Assembly (NCBI GenBank): GCA_965208105.1
Contig: OZ242318.1
Span: 3,904,001 to 3,968,000, forward strand
Reading direction: 5' to 3'
Length of the DNA stretch: 64,000 nt
Origin: Candidatus Latescibacterota bacterium
GTDB lineage: Bacteria; Latescibacterota; UBA2968; UBA8231
Each line of letters starts with the position of its first letter. Within the stretch, counting starts at the first letter, position 1. Below the pieces are notes generated by a model. That model made no database searches and was not told the DNA's origin. It saw only the letters and a program-made list of their open reading frames with translations. This document shows positions 15,378 through 63,410 of the stretch, piece by piece. Both the position numbers and the translations under genes were made by a program.

Positions 15378-16539
15378 CTAGTGCTCTGTTAAGGATTCAG
15401 GCTTGTACTTTTTCGTACATGTTGGTATCATGGGGACATATGTCCATTTTTCTGGGAGGGTCCTGCCATGTGCCTCCATGCTCGAACACCGGATGCTGCC
15501 GAATCGAAAGAACTGGGCCGATGGCTGAAGCGGCCACGCAATGCCGTACAGATGCGACGAGGGCAATTGATCTCCCTCAGTGCCCAGGGTATGCGGGTCC
15601 AGGAGCTGTCGGCGACGCTGCATCTGCACGAGGAATACATCCGCTCCCTGGTCCGACGATACAACGAGGAAGGGCTGGCGTCGCTTCGCACGCGAGCCCA
15701 CCCGGGGCGCACCCCAGCGCTGACGCCCGAAGACGAGTCCGTGGTGGTGGAGATCGCCAAGATGCCCCCTCGGGCTTTCGGCCAACCCTTCAACCAGTGG
15801 TCGCTGCGCAAGCTGACCGACTGTCTGGTCGGGCGCAAGATGATCCCCAAGGTCTCGCACGTGACCATCGCCAAGGTCTTGGACCGGCATAAGGTCACCT
15901 ACCAACGTACCCGCACCTGGAAGGAGTCGAAGGATCCGGATTTCTCCTCGAAAAAAAACGCATCGACCGCCTCTACCGGCGTGCGCCGAAGGACTCGGTC
16001 GTAGTCTGCTTCGACGAAATGGGGCCCGTGCAGATCAAGCCCCATGCCGGCTCCTCCTGGGCGCCGCAGAAGCACCCGGTGCGGCACCGAGCCACCTACA
16101 CCCGGCACGCCGGGGTCAGCTATTTCTTCGGCGCCTACAACGTCCACGAGGACGTCCTGTGGATGCATCACAAGCGAAAGAAGCACGCCTCGGAGGTGCT
16201 CACTTTCCTCAAGGCCATCCGGCACCGCTACCGCAAGGCCCAACGCATCTACCTCGTTCTGGACAATTTGTCGACGCACGCGACCCCAAAGATTCGGCAA
16301 TGGTGTCGGCAGCATCGAGTCTCCCTCGTCTTCACCGCTACCAACGCCTCCTGGATGAACCGTCTCGAATGCCATCTGACCGCCGCCCACTACTTCGTCA
16401 TCAAGAACAGCGACCCAAGGGACCATCGAGACATCGGCCAGCGCATGCAGGAATACCTCGTATGGAGAAATCGAAACCAGGACGATGCCAAGCTCGCCAA
16501 AATACAAAATTCAATGCCCACTCTTTAACAGCGCACTAG
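15378..16539 (+). mobile_element. IS630-family insertion sequence, apparently intact
   Basis: Ends CTAGTGCTCTGTTAA / TTAACAGCGCACTAG, inserted at a CTAG site (TA duplication); internal TTGTAC-17-TATCAT promoter. Confidence 0.9.
15468..16528 (+). CDS. IS630 transposase (HTH orfA + DDE orfB joined by a probable -1 frameshift)
   Basis: orfA 15468-16004 is HTH; an A8 run lies at 15951-15958; the -1 frame reads KKRIDRLY...CFDEMGP...LDNLSTH...NRLE. The first catalytic Asp lies upstream of the orfB Met. Confidence 0.85.
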
Positions 16540-24852: not shown

Positions 24853-24952
24853 CTAGTGCGCTGTTAAGTATTCAGACTTGTAATTTTTCTTTCTTCGTGG
24901 TATCACTGGCCAAGGTCTAAAACTCAATGCCGACTCATTAACAGCGCACTAG
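24853..24952 (+). mobile_element. 100-bp MITE derived from the IS630 (family A)
   Basis: CTAGTGCGCTGTTAA...TTAACAGCGCACTAG; the interior matches the left and right terminal parts of the IS630 at 15378-16539. Confidence 0.9.
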
Positions 24953-27337: not shown

Positions 27338-27508
27338 CCTCGACCGAGGCCGCTCCGCGACGCACCCAGGACAGGCGGTAGCCAGCCAGCGCATATCAGC
27401 CGGATCAACCGCCGCTACAGCGTCCCTTCTGTTCCCGAACAAACCCATGCAAAGATAACACCCGAAATTACCACCCTGAGTGGATTGACAACCGTTAATA
27501 CATGTCAG
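27338..27508 (+). mobile_element. Orphan right end / non-coding RNA region of the IS110 element
   Basis: Reverse-complement match to about 60968-61145, ending TTGACAACCGTTAATACATGTCAG; no transposase nearby. Confidence 0.85.
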
Positions 27509-27580
27509 TGCCTGCTTGCGCAATTCCGGGTGAACTCTGCAGCCGCAGCATCCGTTTCGGGGCGTTGCCCTCGCTTGGCC
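27507..27580 (+). mobile_element. Partial MITE family B copy
   Basis: AGTGCCTGCTTGCGCAATTCCGGGTGAA...GGCGTTGCCCTC matches the left part of 41697-41863. Confidence 0.75.
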
Positions 27581-39264: not shown

Positions 39265-39427
39265 CAGCCCGTTGATAAAGTTGCTCTGCAGGCGAGGCCG
39301 AGTCATGGCGGCCGAAGGCAAGGCGTGCGACCGAGGCGAATCGAGGGGCTTCGGGGAGGGAGCGCAACGCCGTATTCGAACGCCAGGTCCGGCCGCAGCC
39401 CGGATGGACTTTTTCAACGGGCTGCTA
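39262..39427. mobile_element. 166-bp MITE (family C)
   Basis: 14-bp TIR TAGCAGCCCGTTGA / TCAACGGGCTGCTA; a partial second copy lies at 60196-60226. Confidence 0.8.
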
Positions 39428-41696: not shown

Positions 41697-41863
41697 CTAG
41701 TGCCTGCTTGCGTAATTCCGCGTGAATTCGGCCGCCGCTGCATCCCGGCTCGCGGCGTTGCCCTCCCTCGCCGTACACTCCAGGTACGACTCGCTCAGGC
41801 GCCTTGCGAGCCGGGCGCTTCTGCGCCCTCGTTCGTACGCTTAATTACGCAAGCAGGCACTAG
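41697..41863. mobile_element. 167-bp MITE (family B)
   Basis: Perfect 21-bp TIR CTAGTGCCTGCTTGCGTAATT / AATTACGCAAGCAGGCACTAG. Confidence 0.9.
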
Positions 41864-54173: not shown

Positions 54174-57100
54174 CTAAAACCGAACTGCCCCCCTCACATC
54201 TATGCGATGTTCGGCGGATTGCTGGACTCGATTGCCTCGTCCGGCGGAAACGTTGAGGTCCAGCATCTCAAAGGCCGTACCAGTGAAGCGGCCCAGTTGG
54301 AATCCAAGGCGCATTAGCGACCGCTCCGAGCTGACAGGTCCGAACTCGGCAAACGGGGTCAGCACTCCATGCAAGGGCTCGACTCGCATACTGTAGCCGA
54401 CCAGGGCATCCATGGACCAAACGTCGGGGGAAAGCCCGAAACGGCCGGTCTGGAGCGCACCGTCGCGCCACAGGGCATGGGTACCGCGGTCGGCAGCACC
54501 CCAACGCGGGGCAAGCGACATCGACAGGCCAAGGCCGTCCCTGCCCGGTGACAGGCTGGCAATGATGCTGCCTCCACTCTCCTGGTAGGTTGAATTTAAC
54601 GCAAGCATGCGGCCCCTGGCCTCGATCTGGAATCGCGACCTCGGGCACTGGTAACGCAACCCACCAGCTACCTCCAGGCCCCCGCCGGTCTGGCCATCAC
54701 CGCCGTCGTAGCGGCCACCAAGTTCACCGAAGGGAGTTATCGTTGCGCAGCTGGCCAATACCACGGTGCGAGCGCCTTCCACACCAAGGCGGAAGCGTTG
54801 ACCCGCCACGGCTTGATCGTCGAGTACTTCCTCTCCTTCGGCAGTGGAGAGATTCACGATTCCCACGTCGCCCCGGAGAGACATGTCCAACCCACCCATG
54901 GATCCCAGGGATTGCCTCGCTCCCAGGAGCCCCAGGGACATGGAGAGATCGCTTTCCTCCGTGGTAGAAGTGACCCCTCGCTCGTTTTCGGCAGTGCCTA
55001 CCCCGACGCCACCCAGGGCCCAGATGTCCATTCCGGCACTAGGTGCCCAGCGCACATAGGGATATACACTTGTCAGAACCGTGGTCAACGTGCCGCCTCC
55101 AATTGCTCCATCTCCAGAGAAGGTGTAGTTGGCCTCACCCATACTGTAGGATACCGACACACCTGCCTGACCGGTTGCGGCCACGCGCTTGTCGGCTCCG
55201 AGATATACCGTCATCAAGGTCCCGTCGTGGCTGCCGTGATCCGGGGTACCTTCGAAGGCCTGGTAGTCGCCCAGGCCCCACAAGGTCCAGTTCGGCAGTC
55301 CTTGATCGGCATCGCTGGATCCTACCGGGACGGCGAAGGAGGTGTTCCGAATGGCCTGTTTCCAGGAAATTCCTCCTCCAAGGGTGCCCAATCCGCGAGG
55401 ATAGCGGAAATCGCCCTCCAGGCCTGTGACCTGGGAAGCCAACGGATCTCTATCGCTTCCACTCAGGAGGGAAAGCCCCGCCAGGGTTGCTTTATTGGAG
55501 CCCGAACTGGAGGCGAAGCGAGCACCGATTGCCGATGAAACGCTCGATAGAGTGCTCCGGCCAATCGCTGCCAACGCGTCGCCTACAATTGCCACCTCAG
55601 CCGGTTCGGTGACCACGGTCACGACGAAGGTTTGAGAAGCATCGGGGCCAATTGTGTTCATTGCAACCACTTCAATGGTAGATTCACCTTCTATTACGGC
55701 CGCCACGGTTACCTCAGACCCCGCGACGGAAACGGTGGCAACCCCGGGATTCGAGGAGGTTGCGCTATAGTTCAGGTCAAGGCCGCGGAAATTGTCCGAA
55801 ACGTCCTCGACCCCGTCAGCACCGCCGACGTACAGCATCATGACGGGGATTGGATCGACCCTGGTCGGCTCGTCGTCGTTGTCGGTCAGAGTAATGGTCA
55901 CTGACTCGACCGTAAAGCCCTCTGCGGACCCCTCGACCACGATGGTCTCATCGTACTCGGGAATGAGCTCCTCGGGCGGGGTCAGCGTCAGGGTCCCGCT
56001 GCTTTCAGTCGTACGGGCTCCAACCGTGATCGTTGGAATCGATGCGGCGTAGTCCGTGCCTTCTTCGGCAGTTCCCGACAAGGACAGCGATACTTGCGTA
56101 TCAGTCAGCAGGGCGGTGCTGCCATCGCCCAGAACGGCCGTCACTTCGAACGAGGTTTCCCCATCTCCTTCGTCAAAGCTGGGCACGTCCACGCTCAGAG
56201 TGATGGAGGTTGGCGCCACATCGTTGTCGGTCACGGTCAGCTCGACAGAAGCGATTTCGAACCCCTCGGCGCTGCCTTCGAGGACGATGATCTCGTCTCC
56301 CTCAGCCAGGTTGTCGTCCACCAGAGAAATGGGAATGGTTGCGCTGCCCGTCGTGCCCCTGGCGGCGATGGTCAGAGTGGCAGCTGTGGCGGCATTGTCT
56401 TCGCTTTCGGCCACCGAGAGGGCGACCTGGGTGTCGGTCAACAGGGCGGTGCTGCCGTCGCCCAGGACCGCCGACACCGTGGCCTCGCCGCCGGTCCCTT
56501 CGTCGAAGCTGGACACGTCCACGCTCAGAGAGATGGTGGTCGGCATCACGTCGTTGTCGGTTACGGTCAACTCGACGGAGGCGATACCATATCCCTCGGC
56601 GCTGCCTTCGAGGACGATGGTTTCGTCGCCCTCGACCAGGTTGTCGTCCACCAGGGAAATGGGAATGGTTGCGCTGCCCGTCGTGCCCCTGGCGGCGATG
56701 GTCAGAGTGGCAGCTGTGGCGGCATTGTCTTCGCTTTCGGCCACCGAGAGGGCGACCTGGATGTCGGTCAGCAGGGCGGTGCTGCCGTCGCCCAGGACCG
56801 CGGTCACCGTGGCCTCGCCGCCGGTCCCTTCGTCGAAGCTGGACACGTCCACGCTCAGAGAGATGGTGGTCGGCATCACGTCGTTGTCGGTCACGGTCAA
56901 CTCGACGGAGGCGATATCATATCCCTCGGCGCTGCCTTCGAGGACGATGGTTTCGTCGCCCTCGACCAGGTTGTCGTCCACCAGGGAAATGGGAATGGTT
57001 GCGCTGCCTGCCGTCTCCCTGGCGGGAATGGTCAGGGTGGCTTCGGCGGCGGCGTTGTCTTCGCTTTCGGTCACCGAGAGGGCGACCTGGGTGTCGGTCA

Positions 57101-59747
57101 GCAGGGCGGTGCTGCCGTCGCCCAAGACCGCGGTCACCGTGGCCTCGCCGCCGGTCCCTTCGTCGAAGCTGGACACGTCCACGCTCAGAGAGATGGTGGT
57201 CGGCATCACGTCGTTGTCGGTCACGGTCAACTCGACGGAGGCGATTTCAAACCCTTCGGCGCTGCCTTCGAGTGCGATGGTTTCGTCGCCCTCGACCAGG
57301 TTGTCGTCCACTAGAAAGAAGGGAAGGGTTGCGCTGCCTGTCGTCTCTGTGGCGGGAATGGTCAGGGTGGCTTCGGCGCCGGCATTGTCTTCACTTTCGG
57401 CCACCGAGAGGGCGACCTGGGTGTCGACCAACAGGGCGGCGCTGCCGTCGCCCAAGACCGCGGTCACCACGACCTGGCCTCCCGGACCTTCTTCAAAGCT
57501 GTTCGGGTCGAGGCTCAGAGAGATGGTGGTCGGCATCACGTCGTTGTCGGTTACCGTCAACTCGACGGAGGCGATTTCAAATCCACCTGCGCTGCCTTCG
57601 AGTGCGATGGCTTCGTCACCCTCGACCAGGTTGTCGTCCACCAGGGACAGGGGCAGGCTCACGCTGCCTGTCGTCTCCCTGGCGGGAATGGTCAGGGTGG
57701 CTTCGGCGCCGGCATTGTCTTCACTTTCGGCCACCGAGAGGGCGACCTGGGTGTCGACCAACAAGGCGGCGCTGCCGTCGCCCAAGACCGCGGTCACCGT
57801 CACCTCGCCGCCCGTTCCTTCATCGAAACTGGATGCGTCCACGCCCAGAGAGATGGTGGTCGGCATCACGTCGTTGTCGGTTACCGTCAACTCGACGGAG
57901 GCGATTTCAAATCCACCTGCGCTGCCTTCGAGTGCGATGGCTTCGTCACCCTCGACCAGGTTGTCGTCCACCAGGGACAGGGGCAGGCTCACGCTGCCTG
58001 TCGTCTCCCTGGCGGGAATGGTCAGGGTGGCTTCGGCGCCGGCATTGTCTTCACTTTCGGCCACCGAGAGGGCGACCTGGGTGTCGGTCAACAGGGCGGT
58101 GCTGCCGTCGCCCAAGACCGCGGTCACCGTCACCTCGCCGCCCCTTCCTTCATCAAAACTGGATGCGTCCACGCTCAGAGAGATGGTCGTCGGCATCACG
58201 TCGTTGTCGATTACCGTCAACTCGACGGAGGCGATTTCCAGACCATCTGCGTTGCCTTCGAGTGTGATGGTCTCGTCACCCTCGACCAGGTTGTCGTCCA
58301 CCAGGGATATGGGCAGGGTTGCGCTGCCTGTCGTCTCTGTGGCGGGAATGGTCAGAGTGGCAACTGTGGCTGCATTGTCTTCGCTTTCGGCCACCGAGAG
58401 GGCGACCTGGGTGTCGGTCAACAGGGCGGTGCTGCCGTCGCCCAAGACCGCGGTCACCGTCACCTCGCCGCCCCTTCCTTCATCGAAACTGGATGCGTCC
58501 ACGCTCAGGGTAACGGAAGTGGGCGCCACATCATTGTCGCTCAACCCGACCATGGCCGATTCGACGATGAAACCGGGGGAAACACCCGACACTTCGATCG
58601 TCTCTTCGCCTTCGGCCAAATTATCCTCGATCAAGGTTAAGGCTATGGTTCCCGACCCTTCTGCTTGCTCGGCGGGAATCGTAATGGTCAGCTCGGAGGC
58701 CTCGTAGTCGGGGCCGAATTCCACGTGAGTGCCGGACAGCGACACCACCACTTCCGTGTCCACCAGAAGGACAGTGGAGCCGTCACCCAGCAGGCCTGTC
58801 ACGTTGACCGAGACTCCTCCTTCCCCTTCCCCAACGTTGGAAGGATCGACTGAAAGGGAAATCGAAGTCGGGGTTATGTCGTTATCCGTCAAGGCAACCT
58901 CTGCGGTGGAAACCTCCAGATCCTGGGCGTCCACAGTGGCACCACCGGTGGCGGAGGATGAACCCACGATCACGATGGTCTCGGGATCATCCCCTTCTAC
59001 GATGTTGTCGTCGTTGATGTTCAGGGTCAGGATCGTCCTTCCCTCGGTTCCGCCGGCTGGAATGACAACTTCCTGATCACCCAACTCCCCAACGTAATCT
59101 CGGCCATCCACATTCTCCGCCGTACCAGACAAGGAGAGCTGAATCGGGGTGGCAAGGGACCACGACTTGCTCAAGGTCGCGGTTACGACCGAATTCACCA
59201 CACCATCATCCTCGGCTACACTGTTGGGGTCAACAGACAGGGTTACAGTGGGCAGAGTAAAGTCAATTTGAGGACTGGCCTCGGCGGGGATGCTCTCTTC
59301 GCCACTAATCGTAGAGATGGTAGTGACAGAAAAGGTATAAGTTGCACCCAGGGTGAGAGAGTTGTCCACGAAGGAGGTCTGGCCGGAGGGAACAGTACCT
59401 AATAGTGCAGGTTCGGAACCTCCTGAGGCTGAACGCCACACATTATACCCAGCCACATCGTTGAAATTGAGAAAGTTTCCCTCAGAGGTAAAATTGCTGC
59501 CGGCCGGGACACTGCGCAGTTGGTCATTCGGCGACAGGTTCCAGGAGATGGTGACACTCCTTCCGTCCGCGCTTAGGTCAGCCCGAACCCCGCTGATCGG
59601 CTCAAAGACTCGCTCAGCGCTACCCCCCGCTCCGGACCCATCCTCTGTGCTGCCCGTGAGCTGTGCTGCCAGGGGGCTTGAGCACAGGAAAACGCTCAGG
59701 CCCAGCAGAATGGAAATTGTGATTAGGCCTTCTTTACTTCTTGACAT
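54174..59747 (-). CDS. Large autotransporter adhesin with Fn3-like and Calx-beta-like repeats
   Basis: Signal peptide, acidic repeats 'DDNLVEGDETI...TDND', C-terminal beta-barrel ending in VRF. Confidence 0.85.
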   Translation of the reverse strand: MSRSKEGLITISILLGLSVFLCSSPLAAQLTGSTEDGSGAGGSAERVFEPISGVRADLSADGRSVTISWNLSPNDQLRSVPAGSNFTSEGNFLNFNDVAGYNVWRSASGGSEPALLGTVPSGQTSFVDNSLTLGATYTFSVTTISTISGEESIPAEASPQIDFTLPTVTLSVDPNSVAEDDGVVNSVVTATLSKSWSLATPIQLSLSGTAENVDGRDYVGELGDQEVVIPAGGTEGRTILTLNINDDNIVEGDDPETIVIVGSSSATGGATVDAQDLEVSTAEVALTDNDITPTSISLSVDPSNVGEGEGGVSVNVTGLLGDGSTVLLVDTEVVVSLSGTHVEFGPDYEASELTITIPAEQAEGSGTIALTLIEDNLAEGEETIEVSGVSPGFIVESAMVGLSDNDVAPTSVTLSVDASSFDEGRGGEVTVTAVLGDGSTALLTDTQVALSVAESEDNAATVATLTIPATETTGSATLPISLVDDNLVEGDETITLEGNADGLEIASVELTVIDNDVMPTTISLSVDASSFDEGRGGEVTVTAVLGDGSTALLTDTQVALSVAESEDNAGAEATLTIPARETTGSVSLPLSLVDDNLVEGDEAIALEGSAGGFEIASVELTVTDNDVMPTTISLGVDASSFDEGTGGEVTVTAVLGDGSAALLVDTQVALSVAESEDNAGAEATLTIPARETTGSVSLPLSLVDDNLVEGDEAIALEGSAGGFEIASVELTVTDNDVMPTTISLSLDPNSFEEGPGGQVVVTAVLGDGSAALLVDTQVALSVAESEDNAGAEATLTIPATETTGSATLPFFLVDDNLVEGDETIALEGSAEGFEIASVELTVTDNDVMPTTISLSVDVSSFDEGTGGEATVTAVLGDGSTALLTDTQVALSVTESEDNAAAEATLTIPARETAGSATIPISLVDDNLVEGDETIVLEGSAEGYDIASVELTVTDNDVMPTTISLSVDVSSFDEGTGGEATVTAVLGDGSTALLTDIQVALSVAESEDNAATAATLTIAARGTTGSATIPISLVDDNLVEGDETIVLEGSAEGYGIASVELTVTDNDVMPTTISLSVDVSSFDEGTGGEATVSAVLGDGSTALLTDTQVALSVAESEDNAATAATLTIAARGTTGSATIPISLVDDNLAEGDEIIVLEGSAEGFEIASVELTVTDNDVAPTSITLSVDVPSFDEGDGETSFEVTAVLGDGSTALLTDTQVSLSLSGTAEEGTDYAASIPTITVGARTTESSGTLTLTPPEELIPEYDETIVVEGSAEGFTVESVTITLTDNDDEPTRVDPIPVMMLYVGGADGVEDVSDNFRGLDLNYSATSSNPGVATVSVAGSEVTVAAVIEGESTIEVVAMNTIGPDASQTFVVTVVTEPAEVAIVGDALAAIGRSTLSSVSSAIGARFASSSGSNKATLAGLSLLSGSDRDPLASQVTGLEGDFRYPRGLGTLGGGISWKQAIRNTSFAVPVGSSDADQGLPNWTLWGLGDYQAFEGTPDHGSHDGTLMTVYLGADKRVAATGQAGVSVSYSMGEANYTFSGDGAIGGGTLTTVLTSVYPYVRWAPSAGMDIWALGGVGVGTAENERGVTSTTEESDLSMSLGLLGARQSLGSMGGLDMSLRGDVGIVNLSTAEGEEVLDDQAVAGQRFRLGVEGARTVVLASCATITPFGELGGRYDGGDGQTGGGLEVAGGLRYQCPRSRFQIEARGRMLALNSTYQESGGSIIASLSPGRDGLGLSMSLAPRWGAADRGTHALWRDGALQTGRFGLSPDVWSMDALVGYSMRVEPLHGVLTPFAEFGPVSSERSLMRLGFQLGRFTGTAFEMLDLNVSAGRGNRVQQSAEHRIDVRGAVRF
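56221..58540 (-). repeat. About 7 tandem 330-bp (110-aa) coding repeats
   Basis: The anchor CGGCATCACGTCGTTGTCG recurs at 56541, 56871, 57201, 57531, 57861 and 58191. Confidence 0.95.
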
Positions 59748-60195
59748 TTTCGATATCCTCCTCAACGATTTTCCCGCAAATGTAGGAATGAAAATTTAGA
59801 GTTAGAATTTGATTTGGAATTGGAATTCTCAGATGCCCTTCGTCCTGTTTGTGAAATAATTACATAAAGTTATGCGCAGTTATACAAATTCACATTAAAC
59901 ATTATAAGCTACGAAAAACCGCTGAGTAGCGCAACGGATTATTATGGATCAACTTCCATTTAGTGGTCCAAATCGCCCTTCTCCCGGCATGGGATCTTGG
60001 ACGGCATGGGATCTTGGATTCGGGACGGGTCCGGTTTGAGTCGCTCCTGTGGACGAGCCACAGCGATATGGCCTCTCCTGAGGTCCCCGGCAGGTGAAAT
60101 CGCCCCATCTCTCCACGGACGGCAAATGATGAAGCAGCCATGGTCCGGTTCCTTTCCACTGCAGCCCAGGGTCATCGAGAGTATGGAGAGGGCCC

Positions 60196-60226
60196 AGCAG
60201 CCCGTTGAAATAGCCCATCCGGGCCG
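60196..60226. mobile_element. End fragment of MITE family C
   Basis: AGCAGCCCGTTGAAATAGCCCATCCGGGC matches the reverse complement of the right end of 39262-39427. Confidence 0.7.
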
Positions 60227-60969
60227 CTAGTGCGCTGTTAAAGAGTCGGCATTGAATTTTGTATTTTGGCGAGCTTGGCATCGTCCTGGTTTCGATTTCT
60301 CCATACGAGGTATTCCTGCATGTGCTGGCCGATGTCTCGATGGTCCCTTGGGTCGCTGTTCTTGATGACGAAGTAGTGGGCGGCCGTCATGTGGCATTCG
60401 AGACGGTTCATCCAGGAGGCGTTGGTAGCGATGAAGACGAGGGAGACTCGATGCTGCCGACACCATTGCCGAATCTTTTGGGTCGCGTGCGTCGACAAAT
60501 TGTCCAGAACGAGGTAGATGCGTTGGGCCTTGCGGTAGCGGTGCCGGATGGCCTTGAGGAAAGTGAGCACCTCCGAGGCGTGCTTCTTTCGCTTGTGATG
60601 CATCCACAGGACGTCCTCGTGGACGTTGTAGGCGCCGAAGAAATAGTGACCCCGGCGTGCCGGGTGTAGGTGGCTCGGTGCCGCACCGGGTGCTTCTGCG
60701 GCGCCCAGGAGGAGCCGGCATGGGGCTTGATCTGCACGGGTCCCATTTCGTCGAAGCAGACTACGACCGAGTCCTTCGGCGCACGCCGGTAGAGGCGGTC
60801 GATGCGTTTTTTTCTGAGGAGAAATCCGGATCCTTCGACTCTTTCCAGGTGCGGGTACGTTGGTAGGTGACCTTATGCCGGTCCAAGACCTTGGCGATGG
60901 TCACGTGCGAGACCTTGGGGATCATCTTGCGCCCGACCAGACAGTCGGTCATCTTGCGCAGCGACCACT
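60227..60969 (-). pseudogene. Second IS630 copy, 5'-truncated and frameshifted
   Basis: Near-identical to about 15795-16539; 1-nt deletion near 60647; left part missing at the IS110 junction. Confidence 0.9.
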
Positions 60970-61039
60970 GATATGTATTGACGGTTGTCAACCCTCTCCG
61001 GGGTGGTCGTTTCGGGTGTTATCTTTGCATAGTTTGTTC

Positions 61040-61208
61040 GGGGACAGATGGGACGCTGTAGCGACGGTTGATCCGACTGATATTCGCGGGTTGGCTACCG
61101 CCTGTCCTGGGTGCGTCGCGGAGCGGCCTCAATCTAGAGTCGAGGGTCAGCCTGAAAAGGCGCCTCATAGTGTCTTCGAGGATTCTCCTGACCGGTCCCT
61201 TCTGTCCC
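61040..61208 (-). ncRNA. Putative bridge/seek RNA of the IS110
   Basis: Closed by the GGGACAGAAGGGAC / GTCCCATCTGTCCC stem; internal segments match the target (CACTA, CTAG) and the element end (ATATCAG). Confidence 0.65.
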
Positions 61209-61262
61209 GTTTCGATTTACATGAGCAAAGGTCCTATGCCGGCTTCTGAGACGATGAGCTTA

Positions 61263-62402
61263 TCAGGCGGCGATCCGAGGTCTCCTGGCCACGAGGCGGC
61301 CGGGGCGTTTCTGCTCCCAGGCGATGGCCCAGATGAAACCCAAAAGCTCCCGCGCGATCGCGGTGCAGACTTTGTTTTTCGGCATCCCTCGCCCACTCAG
61401 CCGTCGATAGCGTCCACACAGGCGTTTCTGTGCCTTCCAGGCGATGGCCTGTATGGGGGGTGCGGTCTGTTCGGCGCGTCGTTGCAAGGCGGCCGTCTTG
61501 CGGGCGGGAAAGCGATAGCACCAGGCCGCTTCCACCAGCACGCGCCGCACGTGGGCGTTGCCCGCCTTGGTGATCGCCCCTCGCTTTTGGCGGGAGCCGC
61601 TGGAATGCTCGCTGGGGACCAGACCGACGAAGGCCATCAGTTGGCGCGGCGAGTCAAAGCGGGTGAGGTCCCCCAACTCGGCCAGGGTCGTAACCGCGGT
61701 GAGCGTGTCTACCCCGCGCAGCGCCCTCATAGCCCGCGTCTCCCCTTCCAAAGACCATCCCTCCAGCGCCTGCTGCAGGGCCTGGTCCAACCCCTGGATC
61801 CGACCTTGGGCTTCCTGTACCGCGTCCACGTATTCCTGAAAGACGATCTGCTGGGCCGGATGATCGAAGCGCTGGGTCTGCAGCCAGCGAAAGTGGGCTT
61901 GGGTCCAGCGACTGCGCCCGGAGTAGATCCGGCCGTGGCGCTGCAAGAAGCTGTTCAGCCGCTGGCGCACGCGGCGCTCGGCGTGCTTGAAGTCTTCCCG
62001 GCAGCGCTCCAGATCGCGCATCGCCTCCTGCGCTTGGTCGGGCACCCACACGGGGGTCAACTCGCCGTGTTGGAAAAGCCGCACCAGAGACACAGCATCG
62101 CGGCGGTCGGTCTTGATGCGGTCGCCCGGCCGACGCGGGATCAGCGAGGGCGCCACCACCGTGCAGGCGTGCCCTAGGGCTGTGAGCTGACGGTAGACGC
62201 CGTAGCCGCAGGGTCCGGCCTCGTAGCAAAACCGCAACGACGTCTCCGAGCCGGCCAGTTTGGCCGCCAGTTGGGACAACGCGGCGCCCGTAGAAGGTAT
62301 CGTTCCATACAGGTCCGGCCCTTTTCGGCCTTCACCGGCCAGGGCGACGGTGATCGAATCTTTATGTATGTCCAAGGCGACGAATTTCGTAGATTTACGC
62401 AT
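61263..62402 (-). CDS. IS110 DEDD recombinase/transposase
   Basis: ALDIHK, CYEAGP, KTDRRDA, GLVPSEHSSG; GGAGGAGG RBS. Confidence 0.95.
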   Translation of the reverse strand: MRKSTKFVALDIHKDSITVALAGEGRKGPDLYGTIPSTGAALSQLAAKLAGSETSLRFCYEAGPCGYGVYRQLTALGHACTVVAPSLIPRRPGDRIKTDRRDAVSLVRLFQHGELTPVWVPDQAQEAMRDLERCREDFKHAERRVRQRLNSFLQRHGRIYSGRSRWTQAHFRWLQTQRFDHPAQQIVFQEYVDAVQEAQGRIQGLDQALQQALEGWSLEGETRAMRALRGVDTLTAVTTLAELGDLTRFDSPRQLMAFVGLVPSEHSSGSRQKRGAITKAGNAHVRRVLVEAAWCYRFPARKTAALQRRAEQTAPPIQAIAWKAQKRLCGRYRRLSGRGMPKNKVCTAIARELLGFIWAIAWEQKRPGRLVARRPRIAA

Positions 62403-62516
62403 GGCCTCCTCCTTTTCGCTGGGGATAGGTCTTTGGGTGAACTCCGTTTTCCCAAAGATAACCCCCGAAAACCGAAATCGGAGGAGGTCTTTCATATCTC
62501 CGTCAATACATAAGGT

Positions 62517-63410
62517 CTAGCGCTCGATCTCATCGGTATGAGAGCTGATAATTCCATATGTCTCCGGGCGGCGGTCGCGATACATGAAATGCAGGCGGCG
62601 TGCATGGAGCAGGTGGTCTCTGTCAATGACCACGTTCAGAACCTCCTCGCGGTCATTGCTGCCCTCGGTCATCAGCTCACCCAGAGGGTCGAAAGCGATG
62701 CTGCGCCCTCCCATTAGAATGGGCATGTCCGGAGCTGGCACCCAGCCAATGCTGTTGGCAGCGAGGATGTAGGCAATATTTTCGAAGGCACGGGTGGCCA
62801 GAAGCTCCTTCCAGATAGTCTTTTTCGTATCCGAGATTCCAAACGGCGCCAGAATCGCCTCGGCTCCCGACAGTGCAAGACAACGGGCAGCCTCGGGGAA
62901 GTAGGCGTCATAGCAGAGGAGGATGCCTATCTTCCAGGCCCCGATCCGGAATACCGGATAGCGAGAGCCGGTGCGGAAGTAGATCGACTCGATTCCCAGG
63001 TCCGTTACTATCTCACCGTCGATCAGGATGTGCCTCTGGCCGCCAATATGGGTCTTGCGGTACTTGCCGACGATGTCCCCTCCGGGCCCGATCAGGATGG
63101 CCGTGTCGTAGAACAGATCGGTTCCGTCGCGCTCGAAGATGGTAGCCACGATATGGCACCGGTACTGTGCGGCTTTCGATCTCATGGTGGCTATGGCAGG
63201 ATCCTCAACGGTGGATGCGAGGTCGAAAAGGGCATAGTCGCGCGAGGCAGGGAAGAAGCCGGTGCTCCAGTACTCGGGCAGAAGGATCGCGTCGGAACCC
63301 TCCGCAGCCGCCAGGTCGACGAGGCGAACGGCCGTCTCGATGTTGCGTTCGACTTCTCCGACCGCGCTTTCCATCTGGATCAGCCCGACATTTAAATTTT
63401 CAGGAGCCAT
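62517..63410 (-). CDS. Carbon-nitrogen hydrolase (nitrilase superfamily)
   Basis: E-K-C triad motifs LLPEYW, YRKTH, LCYD; RDRRPETY. Confidence 0.9.
   Translation of the reverse strand: MAPENLNVGLIQMESAVGEVERNIETAVRLVDLAAAEGSDAILLPEYWSTGFFPASRDYALFDLASTVEDPAIATMRSKAAQYRCHIVATIFERDGTDLFYDTAILIGPGGDIVGKYRKTHIGGQRHILIDGEIVTDLGIESIYFRTGSRYPVFRIGAWKIGILLCYDAYFPEAARCLALSGAEAILAPFGISDTKKTIWKELLATRAFENIAYILAANSIGWVPAPDMPILMGGRSIAFDPLGELMTEGSNDREEVLNVVIDRDHLLHARRLHFMYRDRRPETYGIISSHTDEIER

Follow-up and report, generated by a model that had tools for sequence, protein, structure and literature searches.

A predicted bridge RNA in the 3' end of an IS110-family insertion sequence with IS1111-type ends from a Latescibacterota genome

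The insertion sequence and its surroundings

The window, a 64,000-nucleotide stretch of a Candidatus Latescibacterota genome, contains an intact 1,549-bp IS110-family element with IS1111-type ends, whose 3' non-coding end is the region of the predicted RNA (Table 1). The AG cores of the window element lie at 62518-62517 and 60969-60968. In total the genome carries 12 copies of the element that are 95-100% alike, including one with an internal deletion and one with a frameshift. All 12 have the left end CT-AG-ACCTT and the right end CATATC-AG-TG, all occupy insertion sites with CTAGTG, and their left flanks all differ (12 flanks for 12 copies). A sequence-only reading of the locus had described the junctions as CT-AG on the left and AG-TG on the right, which applies to every copy. 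It had also counted the right junction twice, and the second instance (window 27495-27510) belongs not to this element but to a remnant of an 88%-alike sibling. A tblastn search of the genome returned no other IS110 family, only the 12 copies.

The transposase, for which the ORF caller placed the start at 62495 to give 410 aa, contains the Pfam domains DEDD_Tnp_IS110 (PF01548) and Transposase_20 (PF02371) and scores 262.6 bits against NCBIfam NF033542, the cutoff being 140. Residues D11, E61, D99, and D102 are kept, together with S268 in an SG motif, and the protein has the N-terminal DEDD RuvC-like domain and the C-terminal Tnp domain with catalytic serine typical of IS110. Also typical of IS110 are the lack of terminal inverted repeats and the short core at both junctions, AG in every one of the 12 copies. 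The subterminal repeats are strongly conserved, and their length and offsets (12 bp, 7/3) are those of IS1111, in which repeats of 11-13 bp are accompanied by 7-bp left and 3-bp right extensions. The non-coding stretch downstream of the transposase measures 295 nt vs. 116 nt upstream, which is the IS1111 layout, and the IS1111 guide order is found as well, the top-strand complement preceding the bottom-strand match. Because the transposase has 379 aa, outside the 330-350 aa range of IS1111 (PMC11187229), the element is filed as having IS1111-type ends and not as IS1111 proper. It departs from the IS621/Piv group, with its upstream RNA, proteins of 315-330 aa, and very short subterminal repeats, in having a downstream RNA, 379 aa, and 12-bp repeats.

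The circle junction of the window element, as reconstructed, scores 8 of 12 for a sigma-70 promoter, and 72 of 90 homologous loci score at least 9; a scan of 60900-62600 returned 0 sigma-70 sites. Two metatranscriptome runs and two other runs were compared as contigs. The assembled contigs of the two metatranscriptomes, in which strand, ends, and level are not visible, cover the transposase and the RNA region alike, and the contig joints listed include no end-to-end circle joint. Judged by its sequence, the element is very probably an active IS110-family insertion sequence of the ISSfr2/ISEc45/ISCARN28 clade that carries a bridge RNA in its 3' end.

Table 1. Features of the insertion sequence, its predicted RNA, and neighbouring elements (window coordinates).
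Feature	Position	Strand	Basis
Truncated IS630 copy without its first ~417 bp, abutting the IS110 right end	60227-60970	-	DDE_3; 98% to IS630 positions 418-1162
Complete IS110-family element, 1,549 bp plus second AG core	60968-62518	-	Identical ends in 12 copies
Right subterminal inverted repeat, 12 bp	60973-60984	-	3 nt inside right end
Predicted bridge RNA core, ~168 nt	61041-61208	-	Fold vs. shuffles; compensatory change in 48 homologues
Right-end donor guide, ATATCAG (61083-61077) then TC at handshake	61075-61083	-	Co-changes with right end
Left-end donor guide, CAGGAC	61104-61109	-	4/6 match to left-end reverse complement
Target-binding internal loop, outer and inner 4-bp stems	61127-61181	-	4/4 pairs per stem change on both sides
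Target guide 2, CTCTAG (left flank and core) then AT at handshake	61132-61139	-	Covaries with left flank
Target guide 1, GACACTA	61168-61174	-	Complement of T-AG-TGTC: last left-flank base, core, right flank
DEDD recombinase/transposase, 379 aa from RBS-preceded ATG	61263-62402	-	Pfam, NCBIfam, motifs
Left subterminal inverted repeat, 12 bp	62500-62511	-	7 nt inside left end, core counted
Nitrilase-family gene; TAG stop supplies left-junction CTAG	62517-63410	-	CN_hydrolase; syntenic empty locus in G001
Diverged sibling remnant, donor arm and right end only	27338-27508	+	88% alike to 61001-61146

The truncated IS630 copy was compared with an intact IS630 at window 15378-16539. In the same-genus genome G001 the locus has neither IS630 nor IS110 and is colinear on both sides. 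Most likely the window copy hit the near-cognate left tip of this IS630, which then lost 416 bp: IS630 would have inserted at the stop-codon CTAG, the IS110 element would have followed at its left tip, and the loss would have occurred between two CAGTG microhomologies. Conceivable alternatives are a pair of insertions with subsequent homologous recombination and an assembly error; among the contig pieces listed, neither junction of the window copy is bridged by at least 31 letters on both sides.

IS630 is present in nine complete copies of 1,162 bp with a split reading frame and 99.5-100% identity. Two of them are inserted at the CTAG tip of a 168-bp MITE (genome near 392,924 and 756,792), and CTAG tips thus act as nesting spots. 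A 100-bp MITE with IS630-type ends (CTAGTGCGCTGTTAA) lies at window 24853-24952; the genome has four such 100-bp pairs, and this MITE is likely a non-autonomous partner of IS630. REP-like palindromes of ~35 bp with TAG ends occur at window 60193-60230 and 39395-39426, the former just beyond the IS630 right end; the palindrome is absent from the matching locus of G001. A surface protein of 1,863 aa, also encoded on the minus strand (window 54174-59765), contains a 110-aa unit repeated in tandem seven to nine times and probably ends in a C-terminal barrel.

Structure and guides of the predicted RNA

The motifs quoted in the sequence-only reading, CCTCGAAGACACTATGAGG (61181-61163), CCTCGACTCTAGATTGAGG (61145-61127), ATATCAG, and CAGGAC, are all found on the minus strand. 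Its 14-bp closing stem exists as well (61208-61195 with 61054-61041), although pairing extends to 13 of the 14 positions. The 168-nt core folds better than shuffled sequences (z -2.2, 3/300), and the full 295-nt region folds no better than its shuffles (z -0.96). The consensus structure obtained from 48 aligned homologues of <80% protein identity consists of the closing stem and two arms, a target arm containing a symmetric internal loop and a donor arm, which is the most conserved part of the alignment. Two-sided change is seen in 23 of 32 pairs, with 0 of 500 shuffles reaching the observed values, and the consensus is 92% paired vs. 39-51% for slid controls, the structure having been derived from the same alignment, which favours it. 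Two CCTC...GAGG motifs pair crosswise, and this pairing creates the single internal loop. Folding each of them into a local hairpin was rejected (1 of 8 pairs covaries; 352 of 500 shuffles score as high). An Rfam search of 60900-62600 gave no match at E<=1.

Some homologues depart from this architecture. In a Bryobacterales MAG the inner hairpin of the target arm is duplicated in eight of nine copies examined (L028, L029, L030, L032, L041, L044, L048, and L049), giving an extra guide-like strand between the two guides, and variable tandem repeats lie upstream of the RNA; L025 is without the duplication. A tandem duplication in L034 and a short deletion in L168 each have a breakpoint at the CTAG within guide 2 of the element itself, a hint that this DNA may be a recombination or insertion hot spot.

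The single predicted internal loop matches both strands of YCT-AG-TGTC, while the second arm matches the joined ends ATATC-AG-ACCT. The CACTA earlier proposed as a guide is present, but the match is in fact 7 nt long, GACACTA. Dinucleotide shuffling of the 295-nt region brings all three guide words into the same sequence in 2 of 5000 cases; the word CTAG alone occurs in 3226 of 5000 and is therefore uninformative on its own. Covariation was assessed in a sample of at least 160 homologous loci, 161 with the window element. The RNA motif is present in 137 of the 161, and ends could be called from repeat geometry alone in 104, with AG as the left core in 101 (AG/AG in 89 loci, AG/AA in 11). Leaving out 57 loci without RNA or ends, four with non-AG ends, eight with short flanks, and two without a 5' anchor gives 90 loci, which are partly related and not fully independent, though their guides still take dozens of values.

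Across these loci the target guides follow the flanks. At <80% identity (n = 48), 4.25 of 6 guide-1 positions are complementary to the right flank vs. 1.70 when permuted (z 15.6, 0/5000), and 2.94 of 4 guide-2 positions are identical to the left flank vs. 1.60 (z 12.0, 0/5000); a one-base register shift lowers the scores to 2.29 and 0.94, respectively. Below 70% protein identity (n = 27) the z values are 10.6 for guide 1 and 8.9 for guide 2, and 0 of 5000 permutations reach the observed covariation at any of four redundancy levels, a target-loop behaviour characteristic of IS110. Natural reprogramming of the kind the sequence-only reading had envisaged is thus visible among the homologues. In all 90 loci guide 2 agrees with the base preceding the core, and in 89 of them its first post-core base is the same as left-end +1, mostly an invariant A with one T/T case. 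Since an internal IS630 site, CC-AG-TGG, would mismatch guide 2 at the base before the core, it is unlikely to have been a guide-chosen target of the window copy.

Variation is also found close to home. Near-identical copies at 2,089,780, 2,701,793, and 2,923,416, and one in run X16, carry single- or double-base variants confined to guide 2. In two of the 12 genome copies the guide-2 variant mismatches the element's own insertion site, which suggests movement in trans or later drift. A subclade (L007, L012, L013, L096, L102, and L155) is aimed at a palindromic, REP-like target, GATTCCGGACA-AG-CCGGAATGAC.

The donor arm behaves in a comparable way at the right end. ATATCAG had been equated with the element's own right end, and this guide equals the element end in 57 of 60 homologues and changes together with it in four variant lineages (ACC/ACC in three, AAC/AAC in one), as expected of an IS110 donor loop. 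The left-end guide is weaker: CAGGAC, already described as an imperfect match, agrees at 4 of 6 positions here, and across homologues it covaries weakly (1.46 vs. 1.04 of 3, 0/3000, in a register picked among three offsets), with a 30-49% match at position -3. The donor handshake base is A in 46 of 60 homologues, where it would pair with the element's own donor; whenever it is not A it equals target +1 (14 of 14, 4.7 expected, 0 of 20000 permutations). The window element has T, which fits its target.

These observations bear on whether the RNA addresses the target only. IS1111 elements yield short RNAs of 70-100 nt that match the target, and the accessible text of that work suggests a different mode of end recognition (PMC11187229). 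On a model of this seekRNA type, the protein would read the ends through the subterminal repeats and the donor-arm matches would be secondary or dispensable. The weak left-end guide and the strongly conserved repeats would suit such a model; nevertheless, the right-end guide changes with the end, the base next to it tracks target +1, and no part of the alignment is more conserved than the donor arm, all of which makes a target-only RNA somewhat unlikely. The bridge-type RNA with an AG core and donor CATATC-AG-ACCT, as originally proposed, is the reading to which the covariation and the junctions of all 12 copies point.

Targets in the genome and competing explanations

Because guide 1 reads 7 nt, TAGTGTC, the target is YCT-AG-TGTC and not CT-AG-TGC. 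A 168-bp MITE with CTAGTGTCCCGT ends is present in about 92 near-full copies with 101 free ends, no copy being in the 64-kb window. Ten of the 12 element copies lie in tips of this MITE, seven at one end and three at the other; the eleventh is at the tip of a rare MITE of ~120 bp, and the twelfth is the window copy. Guide 2 has a U three bases before the core, for which wobble pairing predicts C or T, and all 10 occupied MITE ends have a pyrimidine at this position, compared with 52 of the 101 free ends (p = 0.002). Since 75 of the 87 free CTAGTGTC sites in the genome are tips of the 168-bp MITE, the guide amounts to a MITE homing signal, and sequence match alone explains the MITE preference: the element keeps landing at MITE tips because its RNA loops spell those tips. 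Two of the 12 copies have flanks that mismatch guide 1 beyond TG.

The same association is seen outside this assembly. In an independent run (X16, loose end at 60966) a variant element copy is joined to the 168-bp MITE, and MITE-like tips are occupied in G016 and the same-genus G001 by elements whose guide is identical or nearly so; one G001 copy whose guide is identical has a mismatched right flank.

A MITE copy that splits a sibling RNA shows that the 168-bp MITE duplicates TA, as is the habit of IS630, so that the AG core lies across the boundary between duplication and terminal repeat. Insertion at this boundary leaves the repeat whole and converts the flanking TA to CA, a change that may immobilise the host MITE in what may be an RNA-level pursuit between selfish elements. 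No transposase-sized element with 168-bp MITE-type ends that could serve as its autonomous partner was found in the genome, in which one long pair of such ends spans 2,843 bp, and no other IS630-like transposase turned up except one fragment. By eye, the 167-bp MITE (window 41697-41863) and the 168-bp MITE (genome 40121-40288) share an interior in reversed orientation and differ in their ends.

Preference for MITE tips could also arise if MITE and IS630 ends were recognised as such, through a hairpin or a bound host transposase, beyond the match of ~10 nt. Eleven of 12 copies are at MITE tips, and the insertions at perfect CTAGTGTC sites, all 10 of them, are in the MITE and none at the 12 free non-MITE sites. 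The difference in occupancy is, however, not significant (10 of 85 MITE sites vs. 0 of 12 others, p = 0.35). In the clade as a whole, transposon ends are hit often but make up a minority of the targets: 11 of 69 right flanks have a terminal-repeat partner vs. 1 left-flank control in the sample of at least 160 loci, and a transposase stands beside one of 31 right flanks and none of 31 left flanks. Recognition of ends as such is accordingly judged unlikely. Clade-wide targeting of autonomous IS ends was rejected on the transposase counts, which make such targeting a subclade habit.

The sequence-only reading had seen the element as a parasite of IS630 and MITE ends with the target nnCT-AG-TGC. 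The tips of other mobile elements are indeed where it inserts, but the CTAGTGC ends of IS630 and the 167-bp MITE are not what its guide describes: guide and site mismatch at +3, the present guide having A and G at positions for which CTAGTGC ends would call for G and other bases. In favour of CTAGTGC as the main programmed target, the window copy replaces an IS630 left end, the sibling remnant at 27338-27508 lies at the tip of the 167-bp CTAGTGCC MITE, a second sibling remnant (genome near 4,001,325-4,001,432) has the guide TGCACTA, and relatives such as ISSfr2 adjoin IS630 transposases (IS630 domains in 5 of 17 loci, which were chosen for a TG flank and include ISSfr2). Occupancy argues the other way. 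Of the 111 ends of the 168-bp MITE, 10 are occupied; the corresponding counts are 1 of 72 for CTAGTGC-type ends (p = 0.052) and 2 of 246 for the remaining CTAGTG sites (p = 0.0002). All nine complete IS630 copies are free of the element, leaving the window copy as the sole inferred insertion at an IS630 tip. As the main target of the present element, CTAGTGC ends are very unlikely, and the idea is largely refuted; it may hold for the extinct sibling. Protein-only targeting, with the loop matches due to chance or being relics of the element's own DNA ends, is scarcely credible, the words being individually short (hence the frequency of CTAG in shuffles) but the loops following dozens of flanks across homologues down to 50% protein identity.

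Under the favoured explanation, a bridge RNA with target and donor loops, the element would excise as a circle, and a tetramer of RNA-bound recombinase would open target and donor and exchange strands at the core, by analogy with IS621. Considered on the opposite DNA strand, the core would be CT, and the guide order and handshake bases would match the IS621 layout. A more far-reaching version may tentatively be entertained, in which the clade is a full two-loop bridge system that engages DNA opposite to IS621 and has repeatedly been re-aimed, by guide changes of one to three bases, at TA-duplicating IS630/MITE tips, with living and extinct guide variants in this genome tracking different MITE families.

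Relation to known systems

Both the mechanism, described in 2024, and the targeting of transposon ends or MITEs have already been published for the family. IS4321 and IS5075 reportedly target Tn21 terminal repeats. In Coxiella, 20 of 21 IS1111 copies lie in the QMITE2 MITE, according to the accessible text (PMC5896051); there IS1111 enters the REP-like part of QMITE2, while an element of the window type inserts at the very tip and leaves the terminal repeat whole. ISPye46, another IS110 element, is described in the part of its report consulted as adjoining IS5/IS256 elements and not as lying in its MITE (PMC11578231). Our search found no paper on IS110 bridge-RNA targeting of IS630 or TA-MITE tips, with most subscription papers and the ISfinder entries outside its reach. 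A 2026 preprint clusters bridge RNAs at scale and, going by the portion available, may include the present clade (10.64898/2026.10.21.760802).

Within the clade, the nearest named comparison is with ISSfr2, whose transposase is 53.7% identical to that of the window element. Its locus is likewise built, with an AG core, 7/3 subterminal repeats, and the same RNA scaffold in the 3' end, and its guide matches its flank, an IS630 end, although guides and target differ from those of the window element. ISCARN28 shares the clade motifs with the window protein by eye; it neighbours ISEc45 and ISSfr2 in the portion seen of the source data of Siddiquee (PMC11187229), and in the accessible text of Durrant et al. 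it is one of six elements for which a bridge RNA was predicted and guides were aligned (PMC11208160). The same text reports bridge RNAs predicted in 93% of IS1111 elements, mostly at the right end and with donor guides in multi-loops (PMC11208160). Among the matches listed, the closest relatives are unnamed (77-78%), with no near named element. The literature as accessible yielded no experimental test of a member of the ISSfr2/ISEc45/ISCARN28 clade.

The IS1111 seekRNA elements ISEc11, ISKpn4, ISPa11, and ISPst6, as far as their published description could be consulted, have in common with the window element the downstream non-coding region, the 11-13 bp repeats, the 7/3 extensions, and the order of top-strand complement before bottom-strand match (PMC11187229). 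The window element differs from them in its transposase of 379 aa and in an evident, covarying donor arm. With IS621 and ISCro4 (IS622) it shares, on the available descriptions, two loops, four guides, a 2-nt core, and handshake positions (PMC11208160, PMC11208158), whereas its RNA is downstream, its subterminal repeats are long, its guides are shorter (about 5+2+3 nt), and its donor arm is multi-branched; protein similarity to the window transposase is confined to 72 residues (E 1e-5 to 1e-8). The handshake bases described above for guide 2 and the right-end donor guide occupy the positions known from IS621, in which the G166A state lowered activity (PMC11208158). Most relatives (the 46 of 60 noted above) have this donor-handshake A, unlike the window element with its T, so that control of directionality may differ in this clade. 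If it does, the clade would serve as an orthogonal scaffold for tools and as a way to find out whether seekRNAs and bridge RNAs share a single mechanism.

The practical value of such a tool is limited by its short recognition site of about 10 nt. As a distant candidate recombinase scaffold, the element comes with about 70 relatives whose natural reprogramming shows which loop bases are changeable. The predicted RNA is well supported by covariation, and the element, with its IS1111-type ends, would work like the IS621 bridge system. The element thereby offers a natural demonstration, at the sequence level, of an IS1111-type element with target and donor guides and handshake positions, and bears on the question of seekRNA vs. 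bridge RNA in elements whose RNA lies downstream.
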